Part shown: positions 30,882 through 40,905 of the stretch, in pieces | Layout: each line of letters starts with the position of its first letter | Position numbering within the stretch: position 1 is the first letter of the stretch | Source of the DNA: Escherichia coli | GTDB taxonomy: Bacteria; Pseudomonadota; Gammaproteobacteria; Enterobacterales; Enterobacteriaceae | Assembly (NCBI RefSeq): GCF_024700885.2 | Contig: NZ_CP117016.1 | Direction: 5' to 3' (one strand) | Length of the DNA stretch: 64,000 nucleotides | Notes under the pieces: generated by a model | Databases searched by the model: none | What the model was told of the DNA's origin: nothing | Seen by the model: the letters and a program-made list of their open reading frames with translations, nothing else | Translations under genes and position numbers: made by a program

Positions 30882-31190
30882 TCAACAGACCGGTGTACCT
30901 TTTCTGAATACCTCCCCGGACGGACTGGCAATCCCCATTCTCCTCAGCGTGGCATCTGCAGCTTTCGCCACTTCGCTGATATCCAGCTTTTCAGGTAGCG
31001 GCGGGGACGATATCTGCGCCAGGCAATAATTCCTGCGCAACAACAACCACTCCCGTTGTGCTTCTGTACATTCAACATTTCCCATAACAAAAAGCCAGCG
31101 GGCAGAAGCTCTGCGCCAGCAACCAGCAGCCTCCAGTTTTTGCGCAACCATGTCTTCCACGACTTCCGGGGGACTCTTTTTCCTGCTCAA
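30882..31190 (-). CDS. PerC-family transcriptional activator-like protein
   Basis: 102 aa; AQKLEAAGCWRRASARWLFVM...REWLLLRRNYCLAQIS resembles the PerC-family core (LEAKGLWRRAA.RWL) as I recall it. Confidence 0.5.
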   Translation of the reverse strand: MSRKKSPPEVVEDMVAQKLEAAGCWRRASARWLFVMGNVECTEAQREWLLLRRNYCLAQISSPPLPEKLDISEVAKAADATLRRMGIASPSGEVFRKGTPVC

Positions 31191-31229
31191 AACATCAACT
31201 CACTGAAATAATATACATACCTGACGGTC

Positions 31230-31874
31230 TCAGCGAACCGTCCATGCCGGGCTGAAGTCCTCTTCCTGAAACAATTCCGTCAGCCCGCTAATCTGTTTCA
31301 GTCTCAGTACTTCATCCTGGTCCATACCCAGCTCAGTGCCAATGCGTTCATCCATCCAGCCCAGGCGTGAAAGATCCCTGACAATATCGGACATAGAGGT
31401 TATCTGGTGTTTACCCCTGGCCCGGTTATGTCGAATGGTCGCTGCAATACGTGAAGCCTGTCCCTTTCTTTCCGGATTAATACAGGTCACTGGCAACCAG
31501 CCCTTCAGACGTTCTCCCGTACCTGCTTCCCTGCCCAGTAACTGACGATGAAAACCATCCACGACCAGATAATGCTCTTTCTCTTCCGAGACAACCACAG
31601 GCTGCGTGAACCCATCCTGCTCCAGTGAATGTTTCAGCAGTTTCTTCTCACCCGGCGCCATGACATTGGGGTTATAATCGTTAGCCACCACCTCATCCGC
31701 TTTCACCCACAGCACACAGTCCACAGGCTCCTGTGCAAAAGGACTGACCTCATGAAGCACCCTGCGCAGGTGATTAAGGGCCTGTATGGCCTCTTCTTCT
31801 GGTCGTTCCTGGCTGAAGTACTGACGAATCATGTCACTCAGTACCTCCACTTCAGGTGTCACAGAATCCCCCAT
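31230..31874 (-). CDS. ibrB: ParB-like nuclease domain protein, IbrB-like
   Basis: 214 aa; ParB/Srx-type motif (NDYNPNVM...LEQDGFTQPVVV...YLVVDGFHR); overlaps the upstream PAPS-reductase-like gene. Confidence 0.65.
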   Translation of the reverse strand: MGDSVTPEVEVLSDMIRQYFSQERPEEEAIQALNHLRRVLHEVSPFAQEPVDCVLWVKADEVVANDYNPNVMAPGEKKLLKHSLEQDGFTQPVVVSEEKEHYLVVDGFHRQLLGREAGTGERLKGWLPVTCINPERKGQASRIAATIRHNRARGKHQITSMSDIVRDLSRLGWMDERIGTELGMDQDEVLRLKQISGLTELFQEEDFSPAWTVR

Positions 31875-33091
31875 TCATTCCTCCTTTCCTTCATACGCTG
31901 CAGGTAACGTTCATAGTGCCGGGGTTTGTTCGGACTGAAGGAGAGAGTCCGGCACCAGAAATCATTCTTTATGAGTGTTTTACAGATACGTCGCCAGGAC
32001 GGAATATCCCGGCTCCCCAGATCATTCTCCTGTTCGTTCGGGATGTCATCCGGGAAGCCCCGCGTCTGATACCAGCGCAGGTAGACAGCAATTTTATTAC
32101 GGTAATGTTCTGCCGTTCTTTCCGGCATCACATCCAGCAGGAACATCGCATAGCTGCGCCAGGTATGATGGGCCGGTTTTGATATACGTTTACGCAGGGC
32201 AAAATAGGCACCGCTTTCATTGGCATAAAGCGCCCCGCTGGCAGCGCCTGACACCCGCTCACACATCCTGGCCCAGGTTTCCGGCTCCAGAACATGGTAA
32301 AGCCACAGTCCCTTACGTTGTTCAGGACCAAAAGGTTCACAGACACGCATGTTGCGTAACGGTACGCCGGCACGGTACATCAGGTCATACAGGGGATTGT
32401 AGATGGCACGGGTTCTGGTGTGATATATCCAGATATCACGAGTTTTCCAGTCATACAGCGGATACATGGTGTAGTAAAACCCTTCAGGCGATGCCGTGGT
32501 CCAGGGCTTATCATCGGCGTATCTCAGTTTGCGCTGGGATACCAGTCCCATGAACCGGTTAAGGGACTCATCCGCACGGACACCGGTCAGTACTGCCACA
32601 CCACATTTATTGTCTGCAAACCAGGAAGAAAATGCCGGAACAAATTCTTCAAACGTCATGGCATACCGGTAAAAGGGAAAATACGCCATATCTGTAATGG
32701 CCCCCTCCGGTGGCTGGCGAACCCACTTCACACCAGACTCCCAGCATATCCACTCCGGCTGAAACTGAGAAACACCGTTTACCGTGGTCAGGGGAAGTGC
32801 CACCCAGTAAAAGGTTTCCGTCACATCATGGTACATTTCCCGCATCTTCTGAATATGTTCAATGGTGCACTGGTACTGAGCCTCCCAGTCAATGAACAGT
32901 ACAGAGAAACGACGTTTTTTCCTGCGGGCCACATCAGCCAAAAGATGGAAAAGCACGGTGGAATCTTTACCACCGGAAAAAGAGAGACAAACTGATGGAA
33001 ATGTTTCAAAAATCCACTCAATACGAGCAATTGCTGCACGCAGAACATTAGTACAAAGCCAAATTTTGTCTGTCATTAAATGATCACGCAT
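31859..33091 (-). CDS. ibrA: PAPS-reductase-like (PP-loop ATP pyrophosphatase) protein, IbrA-like
   Basis: 410 aa; PP-loop motif CLSFSGGKDSTVL near the N-terminus; paired with the ParB-like gene as in ibrAB. Confidence 0.65.
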   Translation of the reverse strand: MRDHLMTDKIWLCTNVLRAAIARIEWIFETFPSVCLSFSGGKDSTVLFHLLADVARRKKRRFSVLFIDWEAQYQCTIEHIQKMREMYHDVTETFYWVALPLTTVNGVSQFQPEWICWESGVKWVRQPPEGAITDMAYFPFYRYAMTFEEFVPAFSSWFADNKCGVAVLTGVRADESLNRFMGLVSQRKLRYADDKPWTTASPEGFYYTMYPLYDWKTRDIWIYHTRTRAIYNPLYDLMYRAGVPLRNMRVCEPFGPEQRKGLWLYHVLEPETWARMCERVSGAASGALYANESGAYFALRKRISKPAHHTWRSYAMFLLDVMPERTAEHYRNKIAVYLRWYQTRGFPDDIPNEQENDLGSRDIPSWRRICKTLIKNDFWCRTLSFSPNKPRHYERYLQRMKERRNEWGIL

Positions 33092-33131: not shown

Positions 33132-33962
33132 TCATAATTTTTGTATCGAGTTGGCCAACCTTTTTTCATTACCAAATCGAGTTGTGTAATATCTCTCTTC
33201 GATACCATACAGCAAAAGTTTAAGCTCTTCGTCACAAGAAATTTCGAAACAGCCAGTGCCATCATCAAACTTTAATTTTTCAGAGCAATAATCATTTATA
33301 TAAGTTAGCATATTCCCCCTGTCACTTACATCCATTTGGTTTAACGTATCCATCGCTAACGCTATTCTTTTTCTGTTTGGTTTTGAAACATTACATGCTT
33401 TATATTCACCAGAGAGAGCAATAAACGACTCCCCCAGAAACTGTTCAACATCCTGTTCTGTTGCCTCTTTATAAAGAGTATCGATACCATTAAACATGGA
33501 AGAAATGGCTGACAAGGATTTAAATATAAGCGTGTCCTTTGCAGCAAGATATACTGCATCCGGGGTCTGGTTAACAACCAGACGATTCTTCCCGCTCTCT
33601 ATCTTTGCTCTATCACCAAGTTCGATCATTTTTTTCTTGAGATATAATGATGGTGTTACCTTCTGAAAATAAAAGTCACCACTTTGAAATGAAAAAATAA
33701 ATGCTATCTTTGAAAAATATTTTTTAGGCAATTCATCATAATTTTTTGAATCAAACTCATCTTTCAAAAAGGATGGGCAGTATTCCCGTTTACTAAATTC
33801 ACTGAGACTAAACCAGGAATCTTCATCAAGATTATGATCCGGTGCATACGGAACCAATGAACACACTGACAGATCAACCCTTTCAAAAAGGGTATGATCT
33901 GAGACAATCTTAAAATATGGTTTTTTCCTGAGACCTTTTGCTTTAACAAATACATTATCCAT
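33132..33962 (-). CDS. Hypothetical soluble protein (276 aa), second gene of the AT-rich two-gene cassette
   Basis: Translationally coupled to the upstream membrane-protein gene; strongly AT-rich codon usage; no catalytic motif recognised. Confidence 0.5.
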   Translation of the reverse strand: MDNVFVKAKGLRKKPYFKIVSDHTLFERVDLSVCSLVPYAPDHNLDEDSWFSLSEFSKREYCPSFLKDEFDSKNYDELPKKYFSKIAFIFSFQSGDFYFQKVTPSLYLKKKMIELGDRAKIESGKNRLVVNQTPDAVYLAAKDTLIFKSLSAISSMFNGIDTLYKEATEQDVEQFLGESFIALSGEYKACNVSKPNRKRIALAMDTLNQMDVSDRGNMLTYINDYCSEKLKFDDGTGCFEISCDEELKLLLYGIEERYYTTRFGNEKRLANSIQKL

Positions 33963-33964
33963 TC

Positions 33965-34525
33965 TTATTTCCTTTCGATAAAGGTATAGTTATTAATCCT
34001 GAAAGCCATGGGCACTACAATATCTTGCGGTACTTTATACCTATAAGGACTGATAAGAAAAATCGACGCTCCTGTTTTTGTCTTAATATTATAAAACTCA
34101 TACCTGAAAACAAGAAACAAAGGATTGAAATATAAGGCCTGAGATAAAAATGTAAAAATAAACAGCACTCCATAAACAAAGAACAACGCCCCCCAGTTAT
34201 TTATACTCAGGGCAACAAAAAAGTACCCCAGATAACTCGGTAAAAAAGAGTTATTCGCATGCTCAACTGAAATCACCTCACCTTTTTTAAACTCATCTTT
34301 TCCCAGCGCAGCACTAAGCACAAGACTGACTTTAGTCAAAACAACAGGTATTAAAAAATAAAAAAGATACGACCCTACCTGAGGAATACCACTTAACCAC
34401 TGTAAACTCTGTTCATGCTGAAAAAAGTAAAACAACGTATATTTCCTTTGCACCAAAAATATAATTATCAACAAAGAAGTGGCATTGAATGTAAGCAGCA
34501 ATCTAAAAAGGATGTTAATTATCAT
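33965..34525 (-). CDS. Small polytopic membrane protein (186 aa, about 4 TM helices), first gene of the AT-rich cassette
   Basis: Hydrophobic segments INILFRLLLTFNATSLLIIIFLV, VGSYLFYFLIPVVLTKVSLVLSAAL, YLGYFFVALSINNWGALFFVYGVLFIFTFL. Confidence 0.5.
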   Translation of the reverse strand: MIINILFRLLLTFNATSLLIIIFLVQRKYTLFYFFQHEQSLQWLSGIPQVGSYLFYFLIPVVLTKVSLVLSAALGKDEFKKGEVISVEHANNSFLPSYLGYFFVALSINNWGALFFVYGVLFIFTFLSQALYFNPLFLVFRYEFYNIKTKTGASIFLISPYRYKVPQDIVVPMAFRINNYTFIERK

Positions 34526-34739
34526 GATATCTGGTTCCTGGACATCTAAAAATCATGCGTCATATCACACAATTTGCATTATGAATAACCATAACAATAT
34601 AACTCAGTTATTGCTACCCAAGCCCAGTATTTAAATAACTATACTATCAATGCGTAAGACCACATTAATGCTCCGCTGAAGAAGAGAAGCACTATACTCT
34701 GCAGTGCCTTTAGAAAATTATTCTCCAAAAGATGGAATA

Positions 34740-36107
34740 TCACTTCATGTCCCCTTGCGTCAAAACCCAGTAACGACTCACCAGCTCGACAAGACCATTT
34801 TCCACCTTTTTTTGCTGCTGTTCACTGCTATTCTGGTTACGAACTTCATCATAGCGACGTAACTGCTCTTCTGCCGGGATATGCCGGTTAAAAGCCTGCA
34901 TGATGCCAAACACCTCCGTTTTCAGTTCACTGACCGTCATGTATTTTCCCCGCTGCTCATCCAGACGGTTCAGGCGCTCAGCCAGCTGCTGTAAGCGGGT
35001 CATGCCTTCGTTCCAGCCCGCCATCGCCTCTTCCGGGAGCGCACGACTCCTTACACTCTTCTGCCAGTTATCCACCATTTCCTGAACACGGGGATTGTCG
35101 GGAAAAAGTACCCTCAGTTGCTGCAGCAGCTGCGCACTGCGTTGCAGGTTGTATGCCGGGGGTAGTTCTGCCAGTCGTGTTATCTGCTGACCGGAAAGGG
35201 TTATCCACTCTGACGCATGATTTAGCAGTGAAGGTGTTCTGCTGAGCTGTGTCATCTGGCCTGCTGAAAGCACATCCGGTGGTGGTGTCAGCAACGCCCT
35301 GAGTTGCTGCTCCGCCGGTGATGGCTGTGTCAGAAACTGCCATCCCGGAATGGCCACGCTGACCGCCAGCAATGCCGCACAGACACCAGTTACAAACGGT
35401 TTCAGAAACGTGGGCGGGGATTTCTGAAGGGAATGTGTGTTTTCTTTTCCGCTCTCTGCTTTTGTTTCAGAAACAACATACACCAGACGGGAGTGCGGCA
35501 GGGTCTGATGTTCCTGTACGTCCGGAGCATCAGACCGGAGTGCCTGCGCCGGAAGGGTTACCGGAGACGATACTTCACCCTGCACAGGCTGGTTCTCCAG
35601 GCGGGTGATATATCCCTTCACCATGGCTTCCGGTAAAGCCACTTTACTGCTCTGTTTAAGTTCGTGCCGGGCCAGTGTGTCACTCAGTGCCTTCAGGAAT
35701 GTTTCGGTCTGATACAGCAGGGGCAGGTTGTCACGGTCGTCCGGAGGCATGGCCCGAAGCGTTTTTTGCAGATGGTTGAACAGACCGGTAATAATTTCCA
35801 GCCGGGCGTGGGTATTCAGCGGCCACATCACTGACCAGTGATGCCGGGTCAGCGCCACAATCAGAGCCAGCCCTTCATTCAGACCACTTAACCCTGTTGT
35901 ATGCATCCGGGCGATGGTGTACCAGGATGCCGTCTGTAATTCCACGCCATTGTGTTCATACAGACGCAGGCAGAGTGTTTCCACGTAACGCCAGTCCACA
36001 TCCGGGCGTGCCGGGTGAGTCAGTTTGCTGATTTCATCGCGCAGGGCAGCATAATCCGGTAATGACCGGGGGTCACCACCGGTTTTCAGTTTCACTTCAG
36101 AAGTCAT
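34740..36107 (-). CDS. ImpA-N-domain membrane protein, VasL-like T6SS accessory protein
   Basis: 455 aa; ImpA-N-like N-terminus (DPRSLPDYAALRDEISKL...NGVELQTASWY...GLNEGLALIVAL) and a central TM helix (VTGVCAALLAVSVAIPGW). Confidence 0.6.
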   Translation of the reverse strand: MTSEVKLKTGGDPRSLPDYAALRDEISKLTHPARPDVDWRYVETLCLRLYEHNGVELQTASWYTIARMHTTGLSGLNEGLALIVALTRHHWSVMWPLNTHARLEIITGLFNHLQKTLRAMPPDDRDNLPLLYQTETFLKALSDTLARHELKQSSKVALPEAMVKGYITRLENQPVQGEVSSPVTLPAQALRSDAPDVQEHQTLPHSRLVYVVSETKAESGKENTHSLQKSPPTFLKPFVTGVCAALLAVSVAIPGWQFLTQPSPAEQQLRALLTPPPDVLSAGQMTQLSRTPSLLNHASEWITLSGQQITRLAELPPAYNLQRSAQLLQQLRVLFPDNPRVQEMVDNWQKSVRSRALPEEAMAGWNEGMTRLQQLAERLNRLDEQRGKYMTVSELKTEVFGIMQAFNRHIPAEEQLRRYDEVRNQNSSEQQQKKVENGLVELVSRYWVLTQGDMK

Positions 36108-36161: not shown

Positions 36162-36467
36162 TCAGTGTGATACCGGTACCCGGGAAAGGTATTCCACCGC
36201 GCGGATAATTGCCGGTGTCACATCCCACCGCCGTTTCAGAACCGGCAACAGCTCATTAAGGTTTCTGATATAACGCTCAGTGAACAGCCGTTGTCCGTCC
36301 CTGGTTAAATGAAAACCTGACTGATTACAGGTAATGGTGATATGACAGGTATCGTTGCCAATATATACGGCTTCCTGGGGTCTGAATCTGACATTCCAGT
36401 ACCAGGAATACGGGGAATGATTAAGATGAAAAAGACGCATCTGAATGTCACTGAATAATGGATTCAT
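36162..36467 (-). CDS. Small conserved hypothetical protein (about 101 aa)
   Basis: Probable start at MNPLFSDIQ (internal to the track ORF 36162-36572); a frameshifted paralogue lies at 4450-4748, in both cases near a vasL-like gene. Confidence 0.5.
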   Translation of the reverse strand: MNPLFSDIQMRLFHLNHSPYSWYWNVRFRPQEAVYIGNDTCHITITCNQSGFHLTRDGQRLFTERYIRNLNELLPVLKRRWDVTPAIIRAVEYLSRVPVSH

Positions 36468-36531
36468 CATAAATAAAATACACCTGATAATAAAATATAG
36501 TGGAAAACCAGAATAAAGAAATGGTCCGGTA

Positions 36532-38319
<1,788 letters not shown>

Positions 38320-38512
38320 AAACGCACCTTAATCTGTGAACAAAAAAATAATCACCACCGACATCCACGGATGTTATATCGTGGGTATCGCTTTATTCAG
38401 AAATAAAAAACAGAATCATTAACATGACCAGAATACTGTGAACCATGCTGCAGGGTATCTGCAGATATCCCTTCTGTTATATCCGGCCGGGGTAAAATCA
38501 GAACACTGACTG

Positions 38513-39757
38513 TCAGGCAGCTTCATTTTCCGCGTATTCCAGACTCTGCAGGTACTGCAGCGCCGCCGGGTCAGCCACATATTCCACCTGCCCGTGGTGA
38601 CGCTCCACTTCATTAATGATTTTCTCAAGCTTCACGCGGAAAAATTCTTTACGCAGGTTAATCCTGTTAATGCGGTATTTTTCCAGACTGTCATGAAGTG
38701 TTTTTTCCAGCGCAGGCGCATCATCACAGGAAATCATGGCGTGAACATCAAAATCAAACGGAACAGAAGCACCACTTAACTCTTTGACCCTGTCCATGGG
38801 TTCCAGCCGTCGGGTCATGCCAATTTTAAAGACATCCTCACCAAACGAACCAATATTCGAAATGATATAAACATGCCCCTGTTTCGTAAGCTGAGCCATG
38901 GATTTAGCACGTTCATACTGCGCATGCGCTTCCTGAATTTTCTGTTCCAGCTCCAGGCGTTGTTTCTCTAACTCCTCCCTGTGAGCCCCTTCTGCTGCGC
39001 GCAGCGCCTCCTCAATCAGTTTCTGCTGCTCAGCAAGACGCCGTTCTTCCTCTTCCGCTTCCCGCTGGCGCCGTTCAGGTTCATCCTGACGCTCTTTTTC
39101 TTCACGCATCTGACGCTTAAGCTCTGCCTGATATTCCTTCTCTTCCTGCGCTTTTTCCAGCAATGCCACTTTGTCCAGAAACTGTTGCCTGATACTCTCC
39201 CGGTCAGAATTATCTTCCAGGTTAAGAAAGGCTATTTTCTCACTGACAGCAGCGTAAGCCTCTCTTTCCTTACGAAGCTGGTCATATTTGCTTTGCCAGT
39301 TATTAATCGTTACACCAGCCAGCAGAGTCTTCGCCTTAAATTTCCAGGCGGAATCAACAATCCGTTGCATTGCACGGCTGGCCTTCTGTCTGGCGGTATG
39401 AAATTCCTCACGACGTCTGGCCAGTTGCTCCTTTTCCTGTCGTATTCCCCGGGCTATCGCGGCATTGACAGTTTCATTAAAACCCCGCTCTCTCTGAACC
39501 AGCTCTGAAACGGCCTGCTCAAAGGCTGCTGTTTTCTTTCTGAGTCTCCGGTAAATAAAAAAACGAAGTAAAATTGCAAATACAGTAAGCAAACCAAAAA
39601 ACAAACCAATAATACCTGCCGGATTCGATACTGCATCAATAAAGCGCTCATTAAGATTTATCAGCGCCCTGACCGCCACATAAATCCCCCAGAGAATAAC
39701 GCAAACTAAAATCAGGACAAATCCCGCTGCATTATCATCTTTTTTTCCTCCTGCCAT
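38513..39757 (-). CDS. Membrane-anchored coiled-coil protein with C-terminal T5orf172/MUG113-type GIY-YIG domain
   Basis: 414 aa; two N-terminal TM helices, about 200 aa of charged heptad-rich coiled coil, then GHVYIISNIGSFGEDVFKIGMTRRLEPMDRVKEL...EFFRV, typical of T5orf172 domains. Confidence 0.7.
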   Translation of the reverse strand: MAGGKKDDNAAGFVLILVCVILWGIYVAVRALINLNERFIDAVSNPAGIIGLFFGLLTVFAILLRFFIYRRLRKKTAAFEQAVSELVQRERGFNETVNAAIARGIRQEKEQLARRREEFHTARQKASRAMQRIVDSAWKFKAKTLLAGVTINNWQSKYDQLRKEREAYAAVSEKIAFLNLEDNSDRESIRQQFLDKVALLEKAQEEKEYQAELKRQMREEKERQDEPERRQREAEEEERRLAEQQKLIEEALRAAEGAHREELEKQRLELEQKIQEAHAQYERAKSMAQLTKQGHVYIISNIGSFGEDVFKIGMTRRLEPMDRVKELSGASVPFDFDVHAMISCDDAPALEKTLHDSLEKYRINRINLRKEFFRVKLEKIINEVERHHGQVEYVADPAALQYLQSLEYAENEAA

Positions 39758-39912
39758 GACTTTCCTTTATTTTCCTTCTCAGTAACTGAATATCTTTGAT
39801 TAACGCCCTCCGGAAATATTTATACCCGGAAGGTTGTCCGGCTTTATGATGCCAGCCACTACAGGATTAACTGCAGGCTGAGCACAGATTCCTCTGCTAT
39901 TTCAGTGTCAGA

Positions 39913-40326
39913 TTAATACTGATTACCGGAACAAATGGGCAGATGCGTAAATCCGGGTTTGCTGGCCATATAAAGCGGCGCACAGGTAGGGTTGCGGGGT
40001 TCAGTGACCGGCACAGCCTCATTTTTCTCAGCCACCGACGGTTGTGACACCTTCCGGACAGCCGCTGATTTTTCCTTCTGAACCGGCTTCGTGGTGACCG
40101 GTGATTTCACCTGACGTTTGCCGGGTGCCACGCCATAACCAGAACAAAGGCGCTTCGACTGACTCAGACTTCCGTCATTGCAGACAAAACGTCCGTCTGA
40201 CGTACAGTGTGAAATACCACCTTTAGCACCCGAGCAGGGTTTTCTTCCCCGCGCAGCATCTGCCTGAACCGAAAATAAAAGCCCCACGAACAGAAAAAAG
40301 ATAATTTTCTTCATTTTAAAACTCAT
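39913..40326 (-). CDS. Small secreted Cys-containing protein (137 aa)
   Basis: Signal peptide MKKIIFFLFVGLLFSVQADA; several Cys in the mature part; no family recognised. Confidence 0.45.
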   Translation of the reverse strand: MSFKMKKIIFFLFVGLLFSVQADAARGRKPCSGAKGGISHCTSDGRFVCNDGSLSQSKRLCSGYGVAPGKRQVKSPVTTKPVQKEKSAAVRKVSQPSVAEKNEAVPVTEPRNPTCAPLYMASKPGFTHLPICSGNQY

Positions 40327-40470
40327 ACATTGTTATTGCTGATATGCCCGAGTTATCAGGATGATGAAACATTCAGCCAGCGTTGTCATAAGCCAGAATA
40401 ATGTCACATTCACACCTGACATATATCCATCGCTGTTTATTTATTTCTGTTCTGCCCTCCCTGCTCCGGC

Positions 40471-40905
40471 TCACGTCTGCACGTAGCGCTGCTGTTTCAG
40501 ATGGCGCAACAACACCCTGCCCTCCGGTATAAATGTTGTTCCGTAACGAACCAGCCCGGCATCTTTAAGTTCTGCATCAATGACATAATGCAACTCACCA
40601 GGCTGAGTCTGTTCCTGCATCGTCACGTCGACGCGCTTAATACGTGGCTCATACTTCAGCAGAACGTCTGAAAGCACGCGCATCAGTTGATGCGCCGTCC
40701 CCGGCATTCCCTGCAGAATGGTTGTTATATCCGGCAGACCATAATCCGGAAGATGCTTAAGGCTTCCGGCACGGGTATTCAGAATACGCTGCATGTTATC
40801 GAGCACCGAAAGAATAACCTGCTCTTCCTCACCGACCTGGTTTAACTCCAGCCCGCCAGTGAAATTGCCATAGAGAATTTCATAAAGGGAAGGACGCGGC
40901 ATCAC
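40471..40905 (-). CDS. tssE: T6SS baseplate subunit TssE (gp25-like)
   Basis: 144 aa; gp25/GPW-like; terminal gene of the second T6SS locus. Confidence 0.8.
   Translation of the reverse strand: MMPRPSLYEILYGNFTGGLELNQVGEEEQVILSVLDNMQRILNTRAGSLKHLPDYGLPDITTILQGMPGTAHQLMRVLSDVLLKYEPRIKRVDVTMQEQTQPGELHYVIDAELKDAGLVRYGTTFIPEGRVLLRHLKQQRYVQT

Follow-up and report, generated by a model that had tools for sequence, protein, structure and literature searches.

PD-lambda-1, which was discovered through functional selection in ECOR26 (Vassallo et al. 2022, PMC9519451) and has since been renamed SNIPE (Saxton et al. 2025 preprint, 10.1101/2025.11.03.685801), is the closest described system to the gene considered here, a predicted membrane-anchored GIY-YIG nuclease gene at positions 38513..39757 (minus strand) of a 64,000-nucleotide (nt) stretch of Escherichia coli DNA (assembly GCF_024700885.2, contig NZ_CP117016.1), hereafter the window. 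SNIPE is located constitutively at the inner membrane, and its defence requires both the nuclease residue E414, the E414A substitution abolishing protection, and the DNA-binding DUF4041 domain; removal of its transmembrane (TM) segment leaves a toxic, nucleoid-bound protein (10.1101/2025.11.03.685801). It cuts phage DNA while this is being injected, is found in association with ManYZ and the tape-measure protein, and defends as a single gene; the N-terminal 'adapter' regions of its homologues are hypervariable, with one TM segment in 59% of them and two in 7% (10.1101/2025.11.03.685801). The gene in the window is EC042_4547 (EC042_RS24285, WP_000897032.1) of E. coli 042, with the RefSeq name 'GIY-YIG nuclease family protein', and this region of the window is 100% identical in DNA sequence to 042, 55989 and related strains. 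We report that its product, judged by sequence, belongs with the SNIPE/PD-lambda-1 family. The architecture itself is known; what appears to be new here is the residence of a SNIPE-type clade in a type VI secretion system (T6SS) cluster.

Two PD-Lambda-1 models of PADLOC match the nuclease, PDLC03976 at 5e-88 (residues 201-412) and PDLC03977 at 5e-82 (residues 125-412), with partial coverage that spans profile positions 264-476 of 491 and 189-475 of 496, respectively. The SNIPE reference was the authentic gene recovered from phage PhiR26_1, annotated 'PD-lambda-1' and encoding 500 residues. BLASTP aligned residues 211-406 of the nuclease with residues 274-470 of SNIPE at 53% identity (E=5e-61), and in this register the catalytic E414 of SNIPE falls on E351 of the nuclease. 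Because the protein matches both the PD-Lambda-1 models and SNIPE, its combination of a TM anchor, a helical middle region and a T5orf172 domain is an architecture already characterised through SNIPE. An initial annotation, made from the sequence alone, had guessed at a membrane-tethered nuclease; this fits well with the family membership indicated by PADLOC and BLASTP, SNIPE being experimentally such an enzyme.

The open reading frame (ORF) and the parts of its product are as follows.
38513..39757, minus strand: SNIPE-like membrane-anchored GIY-YIG nuclease gene (predicted), ATG start, ORF of 414 residues.
39659..39724, minus strand: TM helix 1, residues 12-33; hydropathy maximum 2.73, within the modelled helix 10-43, kept in 14 orthologues.
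39551..39622, minus strand: TM helix 2, residues 46-69; hydropathy maximum 2.45, followed by the basic stretch RRLRKK (predicted cytoplasmic side).
39158..39385, minus strand: putative divergent DUF4041-equivalent helical module, residues ~125-200, delimited by the PDLC03977 start at residue 125, alignment and the structural model.
38888..39157, minus strand: charged helical hairpin linker, residues 201-290; 52% charged, EEKE/RQRE tracts, modelled helices 186-254 and 258-292.
38588..38887, minus strand: GIY-YIG (T5orf172) nuclease domain, residues 291-390, from Pfam and the BLASTP register with SNIPE.

Hydropathy was taken on the Kyte-Doolittle scale with a 19-residue window and a threshold of 1.6, and the AlphaFold2 (AF2) model was built on a 44-sequence alignment, reaching a mean predicted local distance difference test score (pLDDT) of 81.6. 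In the model, helices at residues 10-43, 46-147 (unbroken), 154-174, 186-254 and 258-292 precede an alpha/beta domain, and residues 70-292, of which 32-52% are charged, are predicted to be all-helical. Hydropathy, AF2 and Pfam together bear out the layout first proposed for this protein, namely two TM helices, a charged helical region and a C-terminal T5orf172 domain. The coiled coil of about 200 residues that had been suggested for the middle survives in part: the region is charged and entirely helical, but it is not featureless, as it contains a conserved module at residues ~125-200. The two TM segments are separated by a loop of only 12 residues. Since basic residues flank both ends of the pair (KK at the N-terminus, which is RRKK in orthologues, and RRLRKK after the second segment), the sequence implies an anchor in the form of a hairpin with both ends in the cytoplasm.

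At the C-terminal end, Pfam recognised MUG113 at residues 310-386 (E=1e-18) and T5orf172 at residues 294-386 (E=1e-16), so that the original T5orf172 assignment held up against the profile. The candidate catalytic residues Y297, R316/R317, E351 and N364/N367 are invariant in family alignments of 44 and 32 sequences and in the 14 orthologues. The ratio of nonsynonymous to synonymous substitution rates (dN/dS) is 0.06-0.09 against orthologues with dS of 1.5-3.3, and from this the gene is clearly functional as a gene. NCBIfam contained no family matching the protein; a sequence-profile search of the PDB returned only chance coiled-coil matches (E>=0.19), and a Foldseek search of the PDB with the model returned nothing at E<=0.001. 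As long helices dominate the Foldseek search, the assignment of the GIY-YIG fold is drawn from Pfam and from homology to SNIPE. Against AFDB50, Foldseek gave near-full-length alignments to many 'DUF4041 domain-containing' proteins (E~1e-22).

The middle module (residues ~125-200) is the best-predicted part of the model, with a pLDDT of 91-95, and shows 89% mean identity among orthologues. Pfam detects DUF4041 in SNIPE itself (1.2e-19, residues 198-252) and in 21 of 44 relatives at <=1e-3. In the multiple alignment, residues ~133-188 of the nuclease stand in register with SNIPE DUF4041 (198-252), and N153 of the nuclease corresponds to the invariant N218 of SNIPE. The AF2 models of both proteins share one order of elements, that is, helix, Asn loop, helix, turn, long helix, helix and nuclease. 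Taken as sequence and model comparisons, these observations are suggestive of a divergent, minimal equivalent of DUF4041 in the middle of the nuclease. The protein P0133 had been taken as a DUF4041-positive comparator; it proved DUF4041-negative, and the SNIPE gene of PhiR26_1 was used instead.

In E. coli 042 the nuclease gene is placed at the end of the sci1 T6SS cluster, close to the aai/sci2 cluster; the minus strand carries, in order, tssM, tssA, a membrane protein gene, tssF, tssG, tssJ, tssE, YdcA, nuclease, helicase, EC042_4549, tagA, a Kiwa pair and IbrA/IbrB-like genes. Two genes delimit the slot.
40471..40905, minus strand: tssE, the last core gene of sci1 and upstream anchor of the slot, from E. 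coli 042 RefSeq annotation and synteny.
34740..36107, minus strand: tagA (EC042_4550, ImpA_N and VasL domains), the downstream anchor of the slot, from NCBIfam TssA-N, Pfam on orthologues and synteny.

To place the gene in other species, one genome per species was scanned, and the loci were annotated by tblastn and ORF inspection. Close orthologues (70-81% identity) were found in 15 species-level genomes: Enterobacter sp. kpr-6, Serratia inhibens, S. nevei, S. marcescens MSU97, two Pluralibacter, Huaxiibacter, Tenebrionibacter, Kosakonia, Lelliottia, Salmonella enterica subsp. arizonae, Citrobacter braakii, Rosenbergiella (a remnant only) and two further Enterobacteriaceae genomes. In 13 of the 15, the nuclease gene immediately follows tssE (with YdcA in between or not) and/or immediately precedes tagA, and E. 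coli, Citrobacter koseri and a Serratia strain have the same tssE-tagA slot occupied. Each of the 14 full-length orthologues has a length of exactly 414 residues, and they align without gaps; their mean pairwise identity is 73-78% in the TM hairpin and predicted periplasmic loop and 94% in the nuclease domain. Between E. coli and Citrobacter or Serratia, the nuclease is 78% identical, compared with 80% for TssF, 72-75% for TssE, 71% for TssG, 65% for the helicase, 59-62% for TssA, 56-58% for TssJ and 42% for TagA; its conservation thus equals that of TssF and exceeds that of TssE, TssG, TssJ, TssA, TssM and TagA. A literature search turned up no paper, the SNIPE paper included, that connects T5orf172, SNIPE or DUF4041 with T6SS clusters, and the T6SS linkage of a SNIPE-type nuclease is apparently unreported as far as the searchable literature shows.

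The nearest relatives outside T6SS clusters are prophage genes. L22 of phiP27 (NP_543074.1), with one TM segment, is 63% identical to the nuclease over residues 117-413, and P0121, a protein of a Mu-like prophage whose two-TM hairpin is unrelated to that of the nuclease, is 65% identical; phrog_8430 matches the nuclease over its full length (1.6e-129), and PHROG 1847 is also among the prophage-borne relatives. These proteins share with the nuclease 63-65% identity from residue ~91-117 to the C-terminus, have the nuclease domain and the divergent middle module, negative in Pfam, in common with it, and differ from it in their N-terminal anchors and in residing in phage genomes instead of T6SS clusters. 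Evidently, as far as sequence comparison can tell, a prophage-type gene was captured in the tssE-tagA slot and then inherited with the cluster.

SNIPE and the nuclease are alike in having an N-terminal membrane anchor, a long helix, a middle helical module with an invariant Asn, a charged helical hairpin and a C-terminal T5orf172 GIY-YIG nuclease with a catalytic Glu, the identity noted above covering the C-terminal 200 residues. They differ in length (500 versus 414 residues), in the anchor, which is a single TM segment with a periplasmic N-terminus in SNIPE and a predicted two-TM hairpin in the nuclease, and in setting, SNIPE being carried by a lambdoid prophage and the nuclease being chromosomal and fixed in a T6SS operon. 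Kiwa and Zorya offer a functional analogy only, in that their place of action is the inner membrane, at or close to where phage DNA enters (discussed in 10.1101/2025.11.03.685801); unlike the nuclease, they are unrelated, multi-component systems, and Kiwa is described as blocking replication via DNA binding, not as a GIY-YIG nuclease.

On the analogy with SNIPE, we consider it probable that the protein is a SNIPE-type nuclease tethered to the inner membrane, normally restrained, that cuts incoming phage DNA at entry and works as a single gene. Our observations concern homology, the layout of domains, conservation and synteny, and we infer from them the cutting of phage DNA and the topology. 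[quoted passage not shown] The membrane tether might keep the nuclease off the chromosome and inactive, so that it would act on foreign (phage) DNA crossing the inner membrane; the middle module may touch DNA and/or the phage injection apparatus, and the N-terminal anchor, a clade-specific hairpin, may determine where the nuclease is located. It would most likely act as a single-gene unit, with the helicase optional. The clade, being fixed in the tssE-tagA slot of the enterobacterial T6SS operon, would be expressed together with the secretion machine.

Several points weigh against this reading. The N-terminal ~115 residues of the nuclease are unrelated to those of SNIPE, and the target specificity of SNIPE is therefore not transferable to it. 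Pfam DUF4041 (PF13250), a family that the initial annotation had named, does not match the protein even at E<=10, and its close relatives are likewise Pfam DUF4041-negative; hhalign on the isolated middle region gave a weak result (E=3.9e-4, probability 36%), and a sub-domain of SNIPE at residues 129-184 (loop, helix and small strands) is absent from the nuclease. The second tyrosine of the 'YIG' motif is Phe (F310) in most orthologues, Phe being also the family consensus. A literature search, within its reach, turned up no experiment on the EC042_4547 protein. Finally, the long fixation between tssE and tagA, together with conservation at the level of TssF, is unusual for a defence gene.

This last point leads to the rival explanation that survives best, although we regard it as unlikely: the protein could be a T6SS accessory of the Tag type, a co-opted SNIPE-derived protein that docks at the membrane complex or at the TagA sheath-capture site. 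In a variant of this explanation, it would destroy DNA entering via T6SS-related or attack-related envelope breaches. The occupation of the tssE-tagA slot across genera, the uniform length and the identity on par with TssF all speak for such a role, as does the conservation of the hairpin and loop, in contrast to the hypervariable N-termini of SNIPE homologues. Like T6SS tag genes such as tagA (EC042_4550), the nuclease gene lies inside a T6SS cluster, is co-transcribed and keeps its position across genera; unlike them, it is absent from some intact clusters, belongs by sequence to a defence-nuclease family and has no T6SS phenotype reported in the searchable literature.

Published transcriptional data bear on the same question. 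In a preprint from the Cascales laboratory, EC042_4547 and EC042_4548 were termed 'accessory genes' of sci1, an RfaH ops2 element was placed between them, and a reporter downstream of 4548 was found to depend on ops1, ops2 and rfaH in enteroaggregative E. coli (EAEC), which indicates that the nuclease gene is transcribed with the T6SS operon; mutation of ops2 also lowered sheath assembly (10.1101/2025.02.08.637259). RfaH/ops-dependent read-through and the ops2 phenotype would suit an accessory role, but the latter is more simply due to reduced tagA expression. Our own pattern search with GGTAGNNT gave one candidate for this element.
38250..38257, minus strand: ops-core match GGTAGCTT, likely the 'ops2' RfaH site of the EAEC preprint.
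This is the sole occurrence of GGTAGNNT on the correct strand near the 4547/4548 junction; its context, GAGGGTAGCTTC, agrees with GGCGGTAGCGTG at 8 of 12 positions. Counted from the ATG of the longest helicase ORF (38319), the match falls 62 nt into the gene, and counted from the start given by RefSeq (38277) it falls 20 nt in; GGTAGNNT does not occur in the 193-nt gap between nuclease and helicase, where ops2 was expected. Either EC042 has another annotated start for the helicase or ops2 is itself part of a coding region. The pattern is no commoner in the window than chance predicts (12 found versus 20 expected). Within the gap there is one weak promoter-like match (38442..38415), which is not promoter evidence because such matches are fewer there than in shuffles, and a promoter and terminator scan of 34.5-41 kb gave no excess over shuffled sequence.

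The distribution of the gene within E. coli argues against an accessory role. The gene is part of a polymorphic segment.
36471..40487, minus strand: 4.0-kb cassette (YdcA, nuclease and helicase), present or absent in E. coli; breakpoints relative to the empty-site strain TUM13754.
The nuclease gene is carried by 138 of 5426 complete E. coli genomes, and 37 E. coli genomes have an otherwise intact tssE-EC042_4549-tagA junction with an empty site, tssE being joined to EC042_4549 and tagA by an unrelated 84-nt linker; the nuclease is thus dispensable for the integrity of the cluster. No obvious flanking direct repeats were seen on inspection of the junction sequences, no repeat search having been run. 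The adjacent tssE-tssF block was found at megablast level in only 65 E. coli genomes, and many E. coli keep the nuclease after loss of the T6SS core, as in FDAARGOS_403, in which the nuclease-helicase pair stands beside a truncated tssC. The three-gene cassette of Enterobacter sp. kpr-6 is surrounded by ORFs that include no detectable T6SS gene. The retention of all catalytic residues argues further that the protein is not merely structural. As for the variable island in which the gene had first been imagined, the picture is mixed: the tssE-nuclease-tagA slot is fixed in most genera, but within E. coli the 4-kb segment is indeed a presence/absence polymorphism. The 171-kb plasmid NZ_CP053574.1 of Citrobacter sp. 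TSA-1 also carries the nuclease gene, full-length and 96.9% identical (33285-34526), and the island or T6SS segment may thus also travel on plasmids.

A combination of the two ideas, which we hold to be still less likely than a Tag-type accessory, is that a SNIPE-type clade was domesticated as a co-regulated T6SS module, its hairpin docking at the T6SS membrane/TagA apparatus or at sites of envelope breach, where it destroys entering DNA. Under such a domestication, cells that fire contractile machines or are struck by them would also degrade DNA crossing their inner membrane, and this DNA would come from phages, from DNA-carrying tailocin-like particles or from transfer by type IV secretion systems.

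The neighbouring helicase raises a further alternative, and an improbable one, in which the nuclease and a NERD-UvrD helicase form an obligate two-gene defence, the helicase unwinding or translocating DNA and the membrane nuclease cutting it.
36532..38319, minus strand: NERD and UvrD-type helicase (EC042_4548), facultative neighbour; PADLOC C3a187 'NERD+UvrD' at 1e-139, full length.
38320..38512, minus strand: nuclease-helicase gap of 193 nt, from the sequence.
39913..40326, minus strand: YdcA-family lipoprotein gene, first of the 4-kb cassette; NCBIfam PRK10040 models at E=3.6e-25, below the curated cut-off.
The gap had been estimated correctly at about 190 nt. The helicase also has GajB-like PADLOC matches, its orthologues match Pfam NERD/UvrD, and the resemblance to C3a187 and GajB-type defence helicases speaks for a defence pair. 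Nuclease and helicase genes stand side by side in the same orientation in E. coli, C. koseri, several Serratia, an Enterobacteriaceae metagenome-assembled genome (MAG) and Enterobacter sp. kpr-6, and they travel together in the 4-kb cassette. Synteny across the survey nevertheless speaks otherwise. The helicase follows the nuclease in only three of the 15 genomes (Enterobacter sp. kpr-6, the Enterobacteriaceae MAG and S. nevei) and is absent in about 11; it also follows in E. coli, C. koseri and a Serratia strain, as found by exact-protein look-up. In nine of the remaining genomes tagA begins roughly 45-95 nt past the nuclease, the exceptions to this arrangement being Lelliottia, with two other ORFs between, C. 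braakii, whose copy is truncated and lies away from any T6SS, and Enterobacter sp. kpr-6. Within 10 kb of some 40 SNIPE-like loci of greater distance (35-58% identity), neither the helicase nor any T6SS gene has a detectable homologue. Moreover, one gene suffices for SNIPE activity, conservation is lower in the helicase than in the nuclease (65% versus 78%), and roughly 500 E. coli genomes (e.g. ECONIH6) keep the helicase, tagA fragments and IbrAB but have lost the nuclease and the sci1 core, though these are decayed islands with insertion-sequence or integrase remnants at the break. Obligate pairing is disfavoured by this synteny, and the partnership first suggested for the helicase is not supported; the helicase is probably an independent nucleic-acid defence or repair enzyme and an optional neighbour. 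YdcA is found upstream of the nuclease in most, not all, orthologous loci (tblastn), and the Citrobacter orthologue has a Pfam YdcA match.

T6SS clusters often carry nuclease effectors, and the position of the gene inside such a cluster might suggest a T6SS-delivered toxin with a neighbouring immunity gene, but this is hardly credible and was rejected: Pfam finds no PAAR, VgrG, Hcp, Rhs or MIX/FIX-type delivery domain, the protein is predicted to be an integral-membrane hairpin with a cytoplasmic nuclease, the homology to SNIPE, which is active in the producing cell, extends past the nuclease domain (into the charged linker by BLASTP and to residue 125 by PADLOC), the next gene is the helicase or tagA and not a small conserved immunity gene, and prophage-borne relatives occur outside any T6SS.

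The surroundings of the slot show further features of interest. Between helicase and tagA lies one small gene.
36162..36572, minus strand: small ORF EC042_4549, 101 residues (RefSeq) or 136 residues from a GTG start.
EC042_4549 overlaps the 3' end of the helicase gene by 41 nt, stands directly after tssE in empty-site strains, and has no family match in PADLOC, NCBIfam or PHROGs; it is apparently absent in Citrobacter and Serratia, where the helicase overlaps tagA by 14 nt. In the window, tagA is an intact ORF of 455 residues. RefSeq, through the Prokaryotic Genome Annotation Pipeline (PGAP), gives it in 042 and others as three partial pseudogene pieces (ImpA_N, POTRA and VasL), which is probably an annotation artefact, provided that the identity between 042 and the window holds across the whole ORF.

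Directly after tagA stands a Kiwa pair (33132..34525, minus strand), consisting of KwaA (33965..34525, 186 residues) and KwaB (33132..33962, 276 residues), so that tagA is flanked in the window by two membrane-acting entry-stage systems, the nuclease being counted as one by homology. A Serratia strain has the same pair after its tagA (69% and 58% identity), Kiwa and Hachiman occupy this slot in C. koseri, and an 893-residue AAA protein does so in E. coli TUM13754; the position after tagA thus looks like a defence hot spot. Beyond Kiwa, at 30882..33091 (minus strand), are genes for an IbrA-like 3'-phosphoadenosine-5'-phosphosulfate (PAPS) reductase of 410 residues, with weak BrxP and DndC matches in PADLOC, an IbrB-like ParB-domain protein of 214 residues and a PerC-family regulator, a trio that is kept in E. 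coli strains without the T6SS core.

Two observations concern the history of orthologous clusters. TssF, TssG, TssJ and TssM are only 44-61% identical to their E. coli counterparts in one set of loci (L013, L016, L018 and L020) and 57-81% identical in another (L015, L019 and L021). TssE (74-78%) and the nuclease (74-79%) are equally similar to E. coli in both sets, and this difference in behaviour hints, at the sequence level, that the tssE-nuclease-tagA end was recombined between two T6SS lineages. In Enterobacteriaceae bacterium 89 (L017:2491-9366), seven tandem paralogous lipoprotein genes of ~322-326 residues stand directly upstream of YdcA and the nuclease, and this run may be a T6SS immunity-gene array.

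The principle established for SNIPE is that self and non-self are told apart by being at the membrane when phage DNA enters. The locus described here adds to this family a distinct clade that is stably built into the T6SS operon in at least ten enterobacterial genera, that has a hairpin as its anchor and a middle domain that is minimal and Pfam-negative, and that is selected as strongly as the T6SS core genes; DUF4041 screens that rely on Pfam overlook this clade. If the nuclease is simply anti-phage, then a conserved hairpin can serve as the N-terminal 'adapter', entry-stage immunity would have long-term carriers in T6SS operons, with the Kiwa pair two genes on, and a function would be at hand for the EAEC 'accessory gene' EC042_4547. 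If the linkage is functional, T6SS activity and contact-dependent warfare would be tied to defence at the point of DNA entry.

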